A stretch of 64,000 nucleotides of DNA, from sequence record OK335775.1; one strand, 5' to 3'. The stretch's first letter is position 1, and every line of letters starts with the position of its first letter. Below, in pieces: positions 49,038-62,333 of this stretch. The translations under genes and the position numbers were made by a program. The stretch is from Escherichia phage PSD2002. The notes beneath the pieces were generated by a model. It was not told the DNA's origin. It saw nothing but the letters and a program-made list of their open reading frames with translations, and did not search any database.

Positions 49038-49095
49038 AAATTCAAATAATCTGTACTCTGTTTTTGGTTATTATGGTCGGACTGAATTTCATTCT

Positions 49096-49135
49096 ATAAA
49101 TATCAGTCCATGCTTAACAGGTTCTATGATAGAAT
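49096..49135 (+). promoter_or_regulatory. Promoter region for nrdA (late-like TATAAATA plus MotA-box middle promoter)
   Basis: TATAAATA at 49096-49103; TGCTTAA at 49111-49117, 12 bp, TAGAAT; inverted repeat GGTTCTAT/ATAGAACC flanks the -10. Confidence 0.5.
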
Positions 49136-49165
49136 AATTATAGAACCTAACATATTGAGGAAATT

Positions 49166-59329: not shown

Positions 59330-59634
59330 TGAATATTTTATTTGAAAAACCTAAACAAGTGGTTACTGTTGATTACACAGATACATTTATTGATGCTCTT
59401 CTCCAAAAAGGTATCAAATCTATTAAAGTAGGTCCACTTTATGTTATTGAACAGCTTAAAGGCAATTCTACTGGCGAAATTTCGACTCATTCTACTAGTG
59501 ATATCGAATATGTTATCGACCAATTGGTAAATGTAAACCCAGAATTGGTATTAGTCCGTGAAGTTCGTAAAGAAACTCGTGGCGGCGAAACCAAGTATAT
59601 TGTCCGCATTGATTATATAAAAATCGAAGGCTAA
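59329..59634 (+). CDS. Hypothetical protein
   Basis: 101-aa ORF. Confidence 0.4.
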   Translation: MNILFEKPKQVVTVDYTDTFIDALLQKGIKSIKVGPLYVIEQLKGNSTGEISTHSTSDIEYVIDQLVNVNPELVLVREVRKETRGGETKYIVRIDYIKIEG

Positions 59635-59657
59635 GCATCCTAATTGAAGGAAACAAA

Positions 59658-59891
59658 ATGAAATTTCGTTTAGTTAAGTTTTCAGGTCTGAACTCAAAAG
59701 GTGAAAACCTGATAGCTTATTCAGTAGAATATAAAAAGTACTTTTTCTCTCGTTGGAAATCGTACTATAAATCCGAGTGGGTTCGCGCTGAAATGAAATA
59801 TAAAACGGTGCCTATTCTTGATAATTGCCATAGCCTATTAAGAGCTCTAAAAGAGCGTAATGCAACCACTATCAAAACTATTCTGGAATAA
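59658..59891 (+). CDS. Hypothetical small protein
   Basis: 77-aa ORF. Confidence 0.4.
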   Translation: MKFRLVKFSGLNSKGENLIAYSVEYKKYFFSRWKSYYKSEWVRAEMKYKTVPILDNCHSLLRALKERNATTIKTILE

Positions 59892-59893
59892 TT

Positions 59894-60193
59894 ATGATTT
59901 TAACCGAACAAGAAACTATTCGTCTCCGTGAAAAAGTCAAGACTATTTTGTCTGTTGGTTTTCACGAAGTCCTGTTTGAAAAAGCTGATGGTAGTGCCCG
60001 TCGTATGACTTGTACTCGCGACTTAGACCTGCTGCCGTATAAAGAAGTCCAGGCCCCTGGGCCAGAAGCCAATAAAGAATCTGTTAATTATATCAGAGTA
60101 TTTGATACCAAGGTTAATGATTGGCGCTCATTCCGTTTCGATAAGCTGATTTCTATTAACGGCCTTCAGACTGAAACTCTGCTTGTCCTGTAA
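59894..60193 (+). CDS. Hypothetical protein
   Basis: 99-aa ORF. Confidence 0.4.
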   Translation: MILTEQETIRLREKVKTILSVGFHEVLFEKADGSARRMTCTRDLDLLPYKEVQAPGPEANKESVNYIRVFDTKVNDWRSFRFDKLISINGLQTETLLVL

Positions 60194-60251
60194 TATGCTT
60201 TAAGAATAGCGTGTTATTATTAATCTATCAACAAAACAATATGGATTAAAT

Positions 60252-60575
60252 ATGGAACTTCCTATTAAAGCGGTCGGAGAATATGTTATTCTCGTTTCCG
60301 AACCAAAACAAGCCGGTGATGAAGAAACTACTGCATCTGGTATCGTTATTGGCAAACTTCATCAAGGTGAAATCCCTGAACTTTGTGAAATTTATTCTGT
60401 AGGACCTGATGTCCCTGAAGATTTTTGTGAAGTAGGCGATTTGACTCCACTTCCTGTTGGTAAGATTGCTAACGTGCCTCATCCGTTGGTTGCATTGGGT
60501 ATTAAACAACCTAAAGAAATTAAACAAAAATTCGTTACCTGTCACTATAAAGCTATTCCTTGCCTTTATAAGTGA
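60252..60575 (+). CDS. 31: Gp31 co-chaperonin (GroES analogue)
   Basis: 107 aa; [48 protein letters not shown] match T4 gp31. Confidence 0.9.
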
Positions 60576-60583
60576 TATAAATA
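60576..60583 (+). promoter_or_regulatory. Late-promoter-like TATAAATA downstream of gene 31
   Basis: Exact TATAAATA 140 nt upstream of rIII, at the start of an ORF-free structured interval. Confidence 0.35.
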
Positions 60584-60721
60584 ATAATATGGATTGGCTG
60601 CCGGACTAGTTAGTTAACCGGAGAATCCTAAGCGGTGGACTACAACTGAGAGACTTGCCGAAAGGAAGTGAAATTCAGAAGAACGTGTCCACCAATCTTT
60701 ATCTCGAATTGAGAAACTAAA

Positions 60722-60970
60722 ATGAACAAACAATTGAATCACGCTCTTGAACTGCAACGCAACGCTTGGAACAACGGTCACGAAAACTACGGCGCATCTA
60801 TTGATGTTGAGGCCGAAGCACTGGAAATCCTGCGTTATTTCAAACATCTGAATCCTGCTCAGGCTACTCTGGCTGCTGAACTGGAAGCTAAAGATGAACT
60901 GAAATTTGCTAAGCCTTTGGCTTCAGCAGCTCGTAAAGCAGTACGTCATTTTATTATTACCCTGAAGTAA
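60722..60970 (+). CDS. rIII: rIII lysis-inhibition accessory protein
   Basis: 82 aa after gene 31; size and position as T4 rIII. Confidence 0.8.
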   Translation: MNKQLNHALELQRNAWNNGHENYGASIDVEAEALEILRYFKHLNPAQATLAAELEAKDELKFAKPLASAARKAVRHFIITLK

Positions 60971-61232
60971 GTTAAATCGAGGAGCCGTCGAACTGTTTGA
61001 TTAATGATTTGCGAATCATTATAGTTTTAAGACCCCAACAGTTTTACGGTGTACCTCTTGAATGTATTTTGTACTATCACGCGTCAGAAAAAGGTTATCT
61101 GTCTAAGTCGTGGTTGGTATGATGACGAGGTTTATGGTTATCCTGTCGTTAAATATCCTAAACCTATGTTCCCCTTGAGGGCTTGCGCAGGCAACGCCAA
61201 TAAGTCCTGCATCCTAATTTAAGAGATTTAAA

Positions 61233-61394
61233 ATGGCTAAGAAAGAAGTTAAAGTAGTTGACGGTACCTCTAAACGCGCTGGTTACAAGCGTGCGTCCAA
61301 CAAGCGTATCAATCAGGTAGTTGATAAGCTTCAAGCTCGTGCTCGTGCAGTATTGCGTGCAGATGCTGCTTGCTTTGGTAAGCCTCAGGCATAA
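61233..61394 (+). CDS. Hypothetical small basic protein
   Basis: 53-aa ORF below cutoff, Lys/Arg-rich, followed by a strong terminator. Confidence 0.35.
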   Translation: MAKKEVKVVDGTSKRAGYKRASNKRINQVVDKLQARARAVLRADAACFGKPQA

Positions 61395-61399
61395 GTTAT

Positions 61400-61428
61400 G
61401 GGACTCCGAAGAGTCCCATTTTTGTTTC
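61400..61428 (+). terminator. Rho-independent terminator
   Basis: GGGACTC-CGAA-GAGTCCC plus ATTTTTGTTTC. Confidence 0.7.
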
Positions 61429-61445
61429 TAAATCTTTAAAAAAAT

Positions 61446-61474
61446 GGTGTACATCTCCGGTAGGCATGATACTA
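61446..61474 (+). promoter_or_regulatory. Early promoter cassette
   Basis: GTGTAC ... TACTAT followed by the leader ACCAAATAATACGAAAACAAACT, which is repeated at 61925. Confidence 0.5.
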
Positions 61475-61516
61475 TAGACATGTACCAAATAATACGAAAA
61501 CAAACTGGAGAATAAA

Positions 61517-61885
61517 ATGAAAATCAATCTTAACTCATATATCAAATGTAAAGACCACGACGGTTACAAAGCAATCGAAACTAAAGAAATGCAATGGCAC
61601 TTGTACAAAGAACAATTTGAATTTGTAGGTTGCATGACTCCGGAAGGTCCTTCTGATGACTTCTCTTGGAAAATTATGGTAACAAACTTTTTTACCGGTG
61701 ATACCTACGAACTGAAAACTATCATAACCGGTAAGATTCGTTGTAAGACCTATGAAGATGAAGAAACCGGTTATTCTGAAGATGTTACATGGTATCAAAA
61801 TGGTCGCACTACTGCTGATGAGTTGATTGAAAAAATGAAAGCCAAAGGTGAATTAAATTTAGATAATTGGATTAAAGTTGCATAA
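61517..61885 (+). CDS. Hypothetical protein
   Basis: 122-aa ORF after promoter 61446-61474 and GGAGAA. Confidence 0.45.
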   Translation: MKINLNSYIKCKDHDGYKAIETKEMQWHLYKEQFEFVGCMTPEGPSDDFSWKIMVTNFFTGDTYELKTIITGKIRCKTYEDEETGYSEDVTWYQNGRTTADELIEKMKAKGELNLDNWIKVA

Positions 61886-61889
61886 AACA

Positions 61890-61919
61890 GTTTACTTTGG
61901 TACAGGTTGTGTTATTATA
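61890..61919 (+). promoter_or_regulatory. Early promoter cassette
   Basis: GTTTAC ... TATTAT flanked by inverted repeat GGTACAGG/CCTGTACC, then the same leader as at 61475. Confidence 0.55.
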
Positions 61920-61967
61920 GACCTGTACCAAATAATACGAAAACAAACTAAACCAAAGGATAATAAA

Positions 61968-62333
61968 ATGAACTACATCAACTTCGAACGTAAATATGTT
62001 TCTATCGGTGCGGTTGGTTCTAACGAATACATGTGTTTATGGGAGCATAAAAACGGTTCAGTTTGCGAAATCGACCATTGGGTTTCTCCTGATTATGTTT
62101 ATATGCGATTTGAAAATGGTATCACTCTTTCAATCACTAAAGAAGGTTCTTCTTTTAAAATAGCTTTAGATGATGATTTCCGTCAACGTGATTTAGGTAC
62201 TCATCCTTGCTGGAACGGCGTTAATCGTAAGCTTCTGGTTAAAACCTGGATTCGTCACATCCTGAGCAACCGAGCTAAACCTGAACACCTGGAAGCAATC
62301 TTTGATGTAGTTCTGAACGAATTCGATATCTAA
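61968..62333 (+). CDS. Hypothetical protein
   Basis: ATG 61968 after AAGGA; promoter 61890-61919. Confidence 0.45.
   Translation: MNYINFERKYVSIGAVGSNEYMCLWEHKNGSVCEIDHWVSPDYVYMRFENGITLSITKEGSSFKIALDDDFRQRDLGTHPCWNGVNRKLLVKTWIRHILSNRAKPEHLEAIFDVVLNEFDI

Follow-up and report, generated by a model that had tools for sequence, protein, structure and literature searches.

Here we describe the 146-nucleotide (nt) interval that separates gene 31 from rIII on the + strand of Escherichia phage PSD2002 (sequence record OK335775.1), analysed within a window of 64,000 nt of that genome. Over 1.2 kilobases around the interval the sequence shares 99.9% identity with Escherichia phage QL01 and 95-99% with JS98, JS10, Bp7 and WG01, all of them T-even phages of the genus Dhakavirus, and the window is JS98-like. 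The genes on the + strand follow the order cd, three small open reading frames (ORFs) of which the last is 31.1, gene 31, the 146-nt gap, rIII, a second gap and 30.9. The interval opens with a T4-type late promoter box that is followed by three predicted hairpins (HP1, HP2 and HP3), and we propose that it probably constitutes a late promoter and the structured 5′ leader of the rIII mRNA. The features of the interval and its two flanking genes are the following.

60252-60575, + strand: gene 31, GroES-like head-assembly co-chaperone (ORF list; so annotated in the QL01, JS98, T2 and T4 records)
60576-60583, + strand: TATAAATA, T4-type late promoter box, gp55-dependent (exact box in 49 of 51 distinct rIII leaders)
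60584-60590, + strand: A/T-only spacer ATAATAT (no G or C until the first G of HP1)
60591-60628, + strand: HP1 (single-sequence folds and covariation)
60629-60633, + strand: UAAGC, short unpaired joint from HP1 to HP2 (CUA(A/U)(G/A)(C/U)GG near there in relatives)
60634-60693, + strand: HP2, a three-tier hairpin (fold, covariation and RNAalifold)
60694-60701, + strand: A/U-rich single-stranded linker AAUCUUUA (8-10 nt in relatives)
60702-60714, + strand: HP3, UCUC, loop GAAUU, GAGA (fold and covariation)
60722-60970, + strand: rIII, lysis-inhibition accessory protein of 82 amino acids (PHROG 1457, E = 5.5e-43; record annotations)

The TGA stop codon of gene 31 directly adjoins the promoter box, and HP1 begins 16 nt past that stop. 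A preliminary description of this DNA had singled out the interval as free of ORFs and had listed its opening motif and its repeats, and in these respects it was borne out. A sequence check placed TATAAATA, GGATT/AATCC (60591-95 and 60624-28), CCGG/CCGG (60601-04 and 60618-21) and GGTGGAC/GTCCACC (60634-40 and 60687-93) where they had been reported, and the ORFs that touch the gap are out-of-frame overlaps only, none of them credible. A minus-strand ORF of 77 amino acids (60614-60847) was rejected, as it is interrupted in T4-like, Gaprivervirus and Klebsiella-phage relatives, and the small plus-strand ORFs in the gap vary in length or are missing among relatives. A scan of the region for tRNA and tmRNA found none, and nothing is annotated between gene 31 and rIII in any of the genome records examined.

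The conservation of the interval was assessed from 85 loci upstream of rIII, taken from viral contigs, metagenomes and GenBank phages, which reduced to 51 distinct leaders; counts of hairpin positions refer to the 49 leaders that carry an exact TATAAATA. Folded as a single sequence the interval reaches −34 kcal/mol, with z = −2.76 on the + strand and z = −2.08 on the − strand, which is moderately unusual. Tequatrovirus (T4-type) phages match it at about 80% identity over its full length, compared with 65% at fourfold-degenerate sites of the neighbouring rIII; what decides against chance and against a freely drifting spacer is this conservation. Throughout the leaders the layout is kept while the hairpin sequences are swapped, the order being box, hairpin, hairpin, A/U linker, ribosome-site hairpin and ATG, and exactly three local hairpins were predicted in 43 of the 49. 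A repeated or mobile element was rejected as an explanation: the interval matches 877 phage records at one place per record, and no second copy was found in the window by BLAST or by an HP2+HP3 covariance model run with filters off (next best match 15.4 bits, E = 0.5).

Covariation across related phages, which the preliminary description had named as a check, was analysed with controls in which the pairing partners were slid along the alignment, and the paired regions proved both conserved and covarying. Among 10 distinct sequences of the HP1 version found in this phage 99.1% of the alignment cells were paired, against 22-56% with partners slid, and two-sided changes were present in 4 of 11 pairs while one-sided changes only were present in 0. 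The alignment of HP2 and HP3 comprised 13 distinct sequences and had 97.4% of its cells in standard pairs, compared with 35-44% when the 3′ partners were slid by 1-3 columns; two-sided changes occurred in 8 of 22 pairs (0-3 in the slid controls) and the covariation score was 0.32 versus 0.06-0.10, figures for which it must be noted that the slide and shuffle controls keep the phylogenetic relatedness and that independent events are fewer than alignment cells. RNAalifold, run without a supplied structure, returned the identical HP2+HP3 fold. Two-sided compensatory changes thus affect a total of 12 base pairs over HP1, HP2 and HP3. They recur in separate genera (Tequatrovirus, Mosigvirus, the AnYang type of Dhakavirus and Gaprivervirus) with G-U wobbles as intermediates, and between the window and T4 every helix that varies contains paired changes. 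The G-U pair at 60650/60674 is invariant. On the opposite strand such G-U pairs would turn into A-C mismatches; selection has therefore acted on an RNA of the rIII sense and not on the DNA or an antisense transcript.

HP2 is built in three tiers. Its outer helix GGUGGAC/GUCCACC pairs 60634-40 with 60687-93 and corresponds to the second inverted repeat already recognised in the preliminary description. The 46-nt loop ascribed to that repeat did not stand, as it consists of two further helices, a middle one of CUGAG/UUCAG (60646-50 with 60674-78) and an apical one of ACUU-CC/GG-AAGU (60653-59 with 60664-69) that is closed by a GAAA tetraloop at 60660-63. The pair 60639/60688 occurs as A-U, C-G, G-C and U-A among relatives. 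When the window is compared with T4, 10 of the 36 paired bases of HP2 differ, all 10 being compensated, while the unpaired bases are identical in 24 of 24 cases (Fisher p = 0.004). At fourfold-degenerate sites of rIII, taken as neutral, identity is 65% (0.647), and at that rate 24 unchanged sites would be expected with a probability of about 3e-5. The frozen loops are UACAA, GAAA and AAGAACGU, and their persistence while the stems change indicates that the loops are under stronger selection than the stems. As far as sequence comparison goes, this constraint is the mark of a sequence-specific contact and not of a mere spacer. The loops are invariant only within the group of T4, Dhakavirus, Mosigvirus and Gaprivervirus, and other lineages carry unrelated HP2 domains, which suggests that the contact is either lineage-specific or dispensable.

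HP1 consists of an outer stem GGAUU/AAUCC, a middle stem CU/AG and an inner stem CCGG/CCGG around a 13-nt loop, ACUAGUUAGUUAA, the sequence of which is partly kept among relatives. Its position is kept as well: counted from a predicted transcription start at the box end + 6, the first hairpin starts at 0-3 nt in 47 of the 49 leaders and at exactly 2 nt in 37. At least 10 unrelated HP1 sequences occupy this slot, all at the same distance from the box, and they range from a bare stem of 4-6 base pairs (bp) with a tetraloop, such as GAAGAG-AACA-CUCUUC in Mosigvirus and GAAC-UAAU-GUUC in L028, to hairpins of 50 nt with large inserts (JS98, AnYang). The occurrence of unrelated sequences at one position implies that what matters for HP1 is the presence of a hairpin there, and from this comparison HP1 behaves as a place-holder. 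The interiors of the hairpins also appear to be exchangeable between the tips of HP1 and HP2 among the rIII leaders of L021, L022, L063, L065, L085, L087 and L097. The module found in HP1 of the window, YCGG-A..UAGUUAAC-CCGR, is located at the HP2 tip in L021; other exchanged inserts are GACCAUUAACAGGAU, GAGAACUACCUCCAAAAGGACAUGA and GAUGCG..AAGCCAAAUGGGUCUU.., and their loop sequences are conserved. Such interiors may be small mobile or recombining RNA modules.

The TATA box of late promoters measures 8 bp, lies roughly one helical turn upstream of the start and is followed by an A/T-rich segment (PMC2988020), and for T4 rIII early, middle and late promoters are reported (PMC9409239, where no coordinates are given). 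The motif at the head of the interval had previously been given without being recognised as a T4 late promoter. An A/T-rich segment follows it, and rIII lies downstream on the same (+) strand. The box by itself is at chance level, with 7 occurrences of TATAAATA in the window versus 6.5 expected. The distance between the gene 31 stop and the box varies from an overlap with the last codons to about 50 nt downstream. In this phage and T4 the box abuts the TGA of gene 31, in Gaprivervirus it is located 11 nt further downstream, in Klebsiella-type phages it is made from the last codons of gene 31 (TAT AAA TAA), and in the distant relatives L026 and L029-L031 a clear terminator hairpin lies between gene 31 and the box. 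The spacing between box and HP1 being fixed and that between gene 31 stop and box being variable, the box is tied to the hairpins and rIII and not to the end of gene 31. The consensus and this fixed spacing together would place the late transcription start at approximately 60589-60591.

The other six TATAAATA sites of the window lie about 15-60 nt before a start codon, and the comparison with these short leaders indicates that the long folded leader is specific to rIII. One of the six, at 49095 (49095-49160, + strand), has a perfect 8-bp hairpin (GGUUCUAU…AUAGAACC) 19 nt later and is the sole other site with a marked hairpin; the remaining five late-promoter-like boxes have unstructured short leaders and lie about 15-45 nt before the start codon. 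Together with the TGA of gene 31 the rIII box (60573-60583) reads TGATATAAA / TGATATAAAT, which resembles an extended −10 element (TGnTATAAT) and could permit an early start by host sigma-70 polymerase at the same place. The TG of this TGnTATAAA reading is not kept in Gaprivervirus or Klebsiella phages. A sigma-70 promoter inside the interval was rejected, the sole candidate being a 9/12 match over the box, at chance frequency. In a by-eye check against the consensus sequences for a MotA box and a RegB GGAG site neither was kept in T4. An ATG at 60589 opens a non-conserved ORF of 6 codons, MDWLPD (60589-60609). In most leaders an ATG (UAUG) stands exactly at the predicted late start and opens ORFs of 1-16 codons, for example ATG-TAA in L018 and L056 and MNWVSE in T4. 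In AnYang it is replaced by ACG, and in Gaprivervirus (L015, L016, TH40) it is in frame with rIII and would add 45 residues.

The third hairpin, HP3, had been missed before and lies over the rIII ribosome-binding site. Its 3′ arm GAGA (60711-14), 7 nt before the ATG, is the only Shine-Dalgarno-like sequence before rIII and is likely to be the rIII Shine-Dalgarno sequence, which is thus paired in a helix. The helix UCUC/GAGA changes to CCUC/GAGG in relatives (pair 76-88: UA 7, CG 4), and a (U/C)CUC-loop-GAG(A/G) hairpin is located 3-9 nt before the ATG in about 46 of the 49 leaders. Its folding energy in this phage is −2.2 kcal/mol. The linker that precedes it may let the 30S subunit and S1 stand by, may be cut by RNase E or may form a weak terminator tail. 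Complementarities among the leader loops, the linker and the anti-Shine-Dalgarno arm are of 4-6 nt only, and a by-eye comparison across lineages found no conserved alternative pairing or pseudoknot among the HP1 loop, the HP2 loops, the linker and that arm.

The Rfam/Infernal scan that had been suggested for this interval matched no family. With the Rfam 15 covariance models no credible match to any family, riboswitches included, was obtained in 59500-62000 at E ≤ 10; the matches were at chance level (E = 6.6-9.5) and to eukaryotic families, and a single one of these, snR107 (E = 7.5), reaches the interval, at its 5′ edge. The same scan of five related loci gave no family for the rIII leader interval either. 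Nothing similar to the leader was found in 5,426 E. coli genomes, and mimicry of a host sequence was therefore rejected. A description of the leader was not found in the literature searched, and an early remark on stem-loops may exist in the 1990s work on this region.

Further downstream lie the following features.

61233-61394, + strand: 30.9 (ORF list and record annotations)
61398-61419, + strand: terminator-like hairpin ATGGGACTC-CGAA-GAGTCCCAT followed by TTTTTGTTT, directly after 30.9 (terminator scan)

This terminator-like hairpin is the first clean terminator past gene 31 and rIII and hence the likely end of the transcription unit. Between rIII and 30.9 lies a second ORF-free and unannotated gap (60971-61232), which is conserved from Dhakavirus and T4 to the Klebsiella T4-like phages. 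It contains a sigma-70-like TTGATT-17-TATAGT at 60997-61025 and two hairpins that carry GGUUAUC in their loops (61093-99 and 61136-42) on covarying stems, GAC(G)AGG/CCUGUC here, GUGG/CCAC in L019, GUGGA/UCCAC in L018 and GUC(G)UAG/CUAGAC in L021. As a whole this gap folds with an unremarkable energy (z about 0.3) and matches nothing in Rfam; a long structured leader belonging to 30.9 and a separate RNA are both conceivable. The translation of 61049-61222, YDDEVYGYPVVKYPKP, is protein-like across genera (also in L010, L015 and L019). A missed gene was rejected there, as the frame breaks differently in close relatives and there is no common start codon and no PHROG match, and the conservation is probably at the level of RNA. 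In the Klebsiella-type and related loci L019, L021, L022 and L024 (about 1500-1750) the gap is enlarged by about 200 nt of inserted, conserved non-coding sequence containing …ACGGCAAGUGCAUGCUACC…CUAACGGUGUGCAACAGAUAAGAG…, with no Rfam match at E ≤ 1. The T4 reference (L002, about 2150-2170) lacks some 50 nt of window 61063-61120 that are present in other T4-like contigs (L010); this deletion takes out the first GGUUAUC hairpin, and 1-nt indels occur in the T4 stretch that follows.

Taken together, the most plausible hypothesis, to which we assign a probability of roughly 60%, is that the interval is a late promoter followed by a 5′ leader of about 130 nt with three hairpins, which belongs to the rIII mRNA and acts in cis. 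A structured leader regulating rIII was one of two possibilities raised in the preliminary description. The part of it that concerns the RNA stands, as the fold in the rIII sense is conserved and selected and the geometry is that of a leader, the distance from the box to HP1 being constant and the last hairpin holding the rIII Shine-Dalgarno sequence near the ATG; that rIII is actually regulated through it is what we infer from this arrangement. Polymerase carrying the phage late sigma factor gp55 would recognise TATAAATA and start some 6-8 nt downstream, at 60589-91, and with such a start the late rIII transcript would open with 0-2 free bases followed by HP1. Measured from this predicted start, a stem-loop is found within about 0-4 nt of the 5′ end of the transcript, and on the model of the leaders of ompA and T4 gene 32 HP1 may at this extreme 5′ position shield the mRNA from the 5′-end-dependent RNase E or G and give it a longer life in late infection. 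HP2 would fold as a separate domain, the helices of which need only pair, and which a protein or a tertiary partner probably contacts in a sequence-specific way. HP3 would hold the rIII Shine-Dalgarno sequence in a weak helix (−2 to −5 kcal/mol), so that translation would need this helix to open, and the 30S subunit with protein S1 could land on the A/U linker; this arrangement would set or tune the amount of RIII. Transcripts reading through from gene 31 would carry the same hairpins internally, where they may protect the 3′ side of the gene 31 message.

Several points weigh against this reading. The late start site at 60589-60591 is a predicted position, and the weakness of HP3 means that occlusion of the Shine-Dalgarno sequence may be slight. 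The GC-rich closing stem of HP2 together with the U-rich stretch could end transcription in part, something that a plain leader would not require. In all genomes sampled gene 31 and rIII are neighbours (rIII was next to gene 31 in all 25 gp31 loci), and synteny cannot assign the element to either gene. Also, a plain role as stabiliser or spacer leaves the invariant HP2 loops unexplained as far as the comparison of sequences can tell. One may speculate that HP2 is a specific regulatory receptor that binds a factor and, via the linker and HP3, couples rIII translation to the state of the infected cell, but we regard this extension as unlikely. RIII protein binds ribosomal protein S1 (PMC9409239), and a candidate partner of HP2 may be S1 together with RIII itself, which would amount to autoregulation.

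Other explanations attribute the hairpins to the end of a transcript. HP2 and the U-rich stretch may be a leaky terminator or attenuator that stops some of the transcripts from gene 31 and from the late promoter, and would then define the 3′ end of the gene 31 message, throttle rIII and leave an RNA of about 105 nt comprising HP1 and HP2. This would be compatible with a leader, and the observations in its favour are these: the closing stem of HP2 has 7 pairs (5 G-C) and is followed by AAUCUUUAUCUC, in which the best 8-nt window holds 5 U and begins 2 nt past the stem; 5-6 U are present in the 8 nt after HP2 in 20 of 45 leaders; in L094, L095, L024 and L096 the short GC hairpin that stands as HP2 is followed directly by UUAUUUUAA or UUUUAUU and has a classical look; and the distant phages L026 and L029-L031 do have a clear terminator after gene 31, though before the late promoter. 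We nevertheless hold it to be doubtful, since the terminator scan found none in the interval and its first terminator-like site was that after 30.9, the U-tract is offset by 2-3 nt from the stem here and in T4, and 25 of the 45 leaders have only 2-4 U. In addition, the closing stem of HP2 encloses 46 nt that fold further instead of the short loop of a terminator (L094 and L028 do have a short-loop HP2), a dedicated rIII promoter lies upstream of HP2 and would be defeated by efficient termination, and the invariant internal loops of HP2 would be left unexplained. A stabilising 3′ untranslated tail of gene 31, in which HP1 and HP2 mainly block 3′-to-5′ exonucleases on an abundant message and stand before rIII by coincidence, would also be compatible with the leader. 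The hairpins begin 16 nt past the gene 31 stop, gene 31 is always upstream, and read-through transcripts must contain the hairpins. Other observations speak against this possibility, which we judge to be rather improbable: HP1 stands at a fixed distance from the box but not from the stop of gene 31, the linker and HP3 are linked to the start of rIII, and in L026, L029 and L030 gene 31 has its own terminator and yet rIII keeps a box followed by a hairpin.

The second possibility raised in the preliminary description, an independent small RNA, would start at the late promoter, terminate behind HP2 and work in trans by base pairing or by titrating a protein. It gained no positive support and seems quite improbable. 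A promoter box does lie directly upstream of a compact conserved fold with invariant HP2 loops, the U-rich stretch after HP2 is terminator-like in about half of the lineages and may give rise to a short RNA ending there, and the niche is open, T4 having no characterised trans-acting RNA so far (PMC3014915). Against it, no single-stranded segment that could serve as a seed is conserved across lineages, and other phages have unrelated HP1 interiors and entire unrelated HP2 domains at unchanged places with respect to the promoter and the rIII ribosome site; the scan found no clean terminator, and there is neither an Rfam family nor anything similar in the E. coli genomes. Control of rIII by a small coding sequence or upstream ORF, either the leaderless MDWLPD at 60589 or a GTG ORF at 60668-60712 that runs to the TGA within HP3, is less probable still. 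It could draw on the ATG present at the predicted start in most leaders and on an ORF that ends at the UGA inside HP3 in about half of the lineages. However, the first of these ORFs shrinks to 1 codon or extends to 16, is missing in the AnYang type with its ACG and continues in frame into rIII in Gaprivervirus, the second is missing or ends elsewhere in T4, Gaprivervirus and others, neither start codons nor peptides are conserved, and the substitutions are paired stem changes and not codon-like. That the interval has no RNA function at all, being made up of chance repeats or serving at the DNA level as a cruciform or protein-binding site, would agree with the chance frequency of TATAAATA and with the modest single-sequence z-score. 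It is barely credible in view of the 12 two-sided compensated pairs, the 97-99% pairing versus 22-56% in slid alignments, the tolerance of G-U on one strand only and an architecture kept in 51 distinct leaders.

The rIII leader is thus a covariation-supported RNA without an Rfam family that stands before a gene stabilising lysis inhibition, in relatives of T4, the reference system for phage gene control. Natural compensatory variants of it exist and make it a target for studies on the timing and amount of RIII, on the survival of phage-stimulated RNA decay by means of a 5′ hairpin, and on the HP2 loops as a binding site. Were HP2 indeed a receptor, lysis inhibition would have its first riboregulator, and a riboswitch-like or protein-sensing leader of this kind would have been described for the first time in T-even phages. 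If the element is only a stabilising leader it represents ordinary biology, and it is still worth annotating because the genome records examined leave the gap blank.

The leader can be compared with four kinds of known systems. PeSL cassettes of T4-type phages are present in many copies per genome, combine an early promoter with a stem-loop and reside in hyperplastic regions (PMC2839356, PMC4122927). The rIII element is similar in being a composite intergenic module of promoter and stem-loop and in that hairpin modules are exchanged between related phages; in contrast, it is single-copy, has a late box and is located between two conserved genes. Riboswitch-like or protein-binding leaders, where an aptamer domain precedes a helix that sequesters the Shine-Dalgarno sequence, are resembled in that HP2, with its covarying stems and invariant loops, is joined by a short linker to HP3, which covers the ribosome site. 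The rIII leader departs from these in having no Rfam match and no conserved alternative pairing, and in that HP2 is swapped for unrelated hairpins in sister lineages.

Closer counterparts are found in T4 itself, in which hairpins sequester the ribosome-binding sites of e, soc, 49 and I-TevI and the late promoter lies inside their 5′ arm (Uzan and Miller 2010, PMC3014915). These share with the rIII leader the phage family, a Shine-Dalgarno sequence of a lysis- or late-linked gene held in a helix and a TATAAATA upstream. The placement of the promoter in the 5′ arm leaves their late transcripts without the inhibitory helix, whereas the rIII box ends at 60583, 119 nt upstream of HP3 (60702), and every transcript consequently has both arms of HP3. 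The rIII HP3 is also much weaker and is preceded by two further conserved hairpins. The remaining comparison is with the 5′-terminal stabiliser stem-loops in the leaders of E. coli ompA and T4 gene 32, reportedly the subject of work by Emory, Bouvet and Belasco in 1992 and by Gorski et al. in 1985. HP1 of rIII differs from these in that it often has large, partly conserved inserts, for which a stabiliser would have no need. It is like them in being a hairpin a few bases from the mRNA 5′ end, which for rIII is a predicted end, with a sequence that is free to change as long as it pairs.

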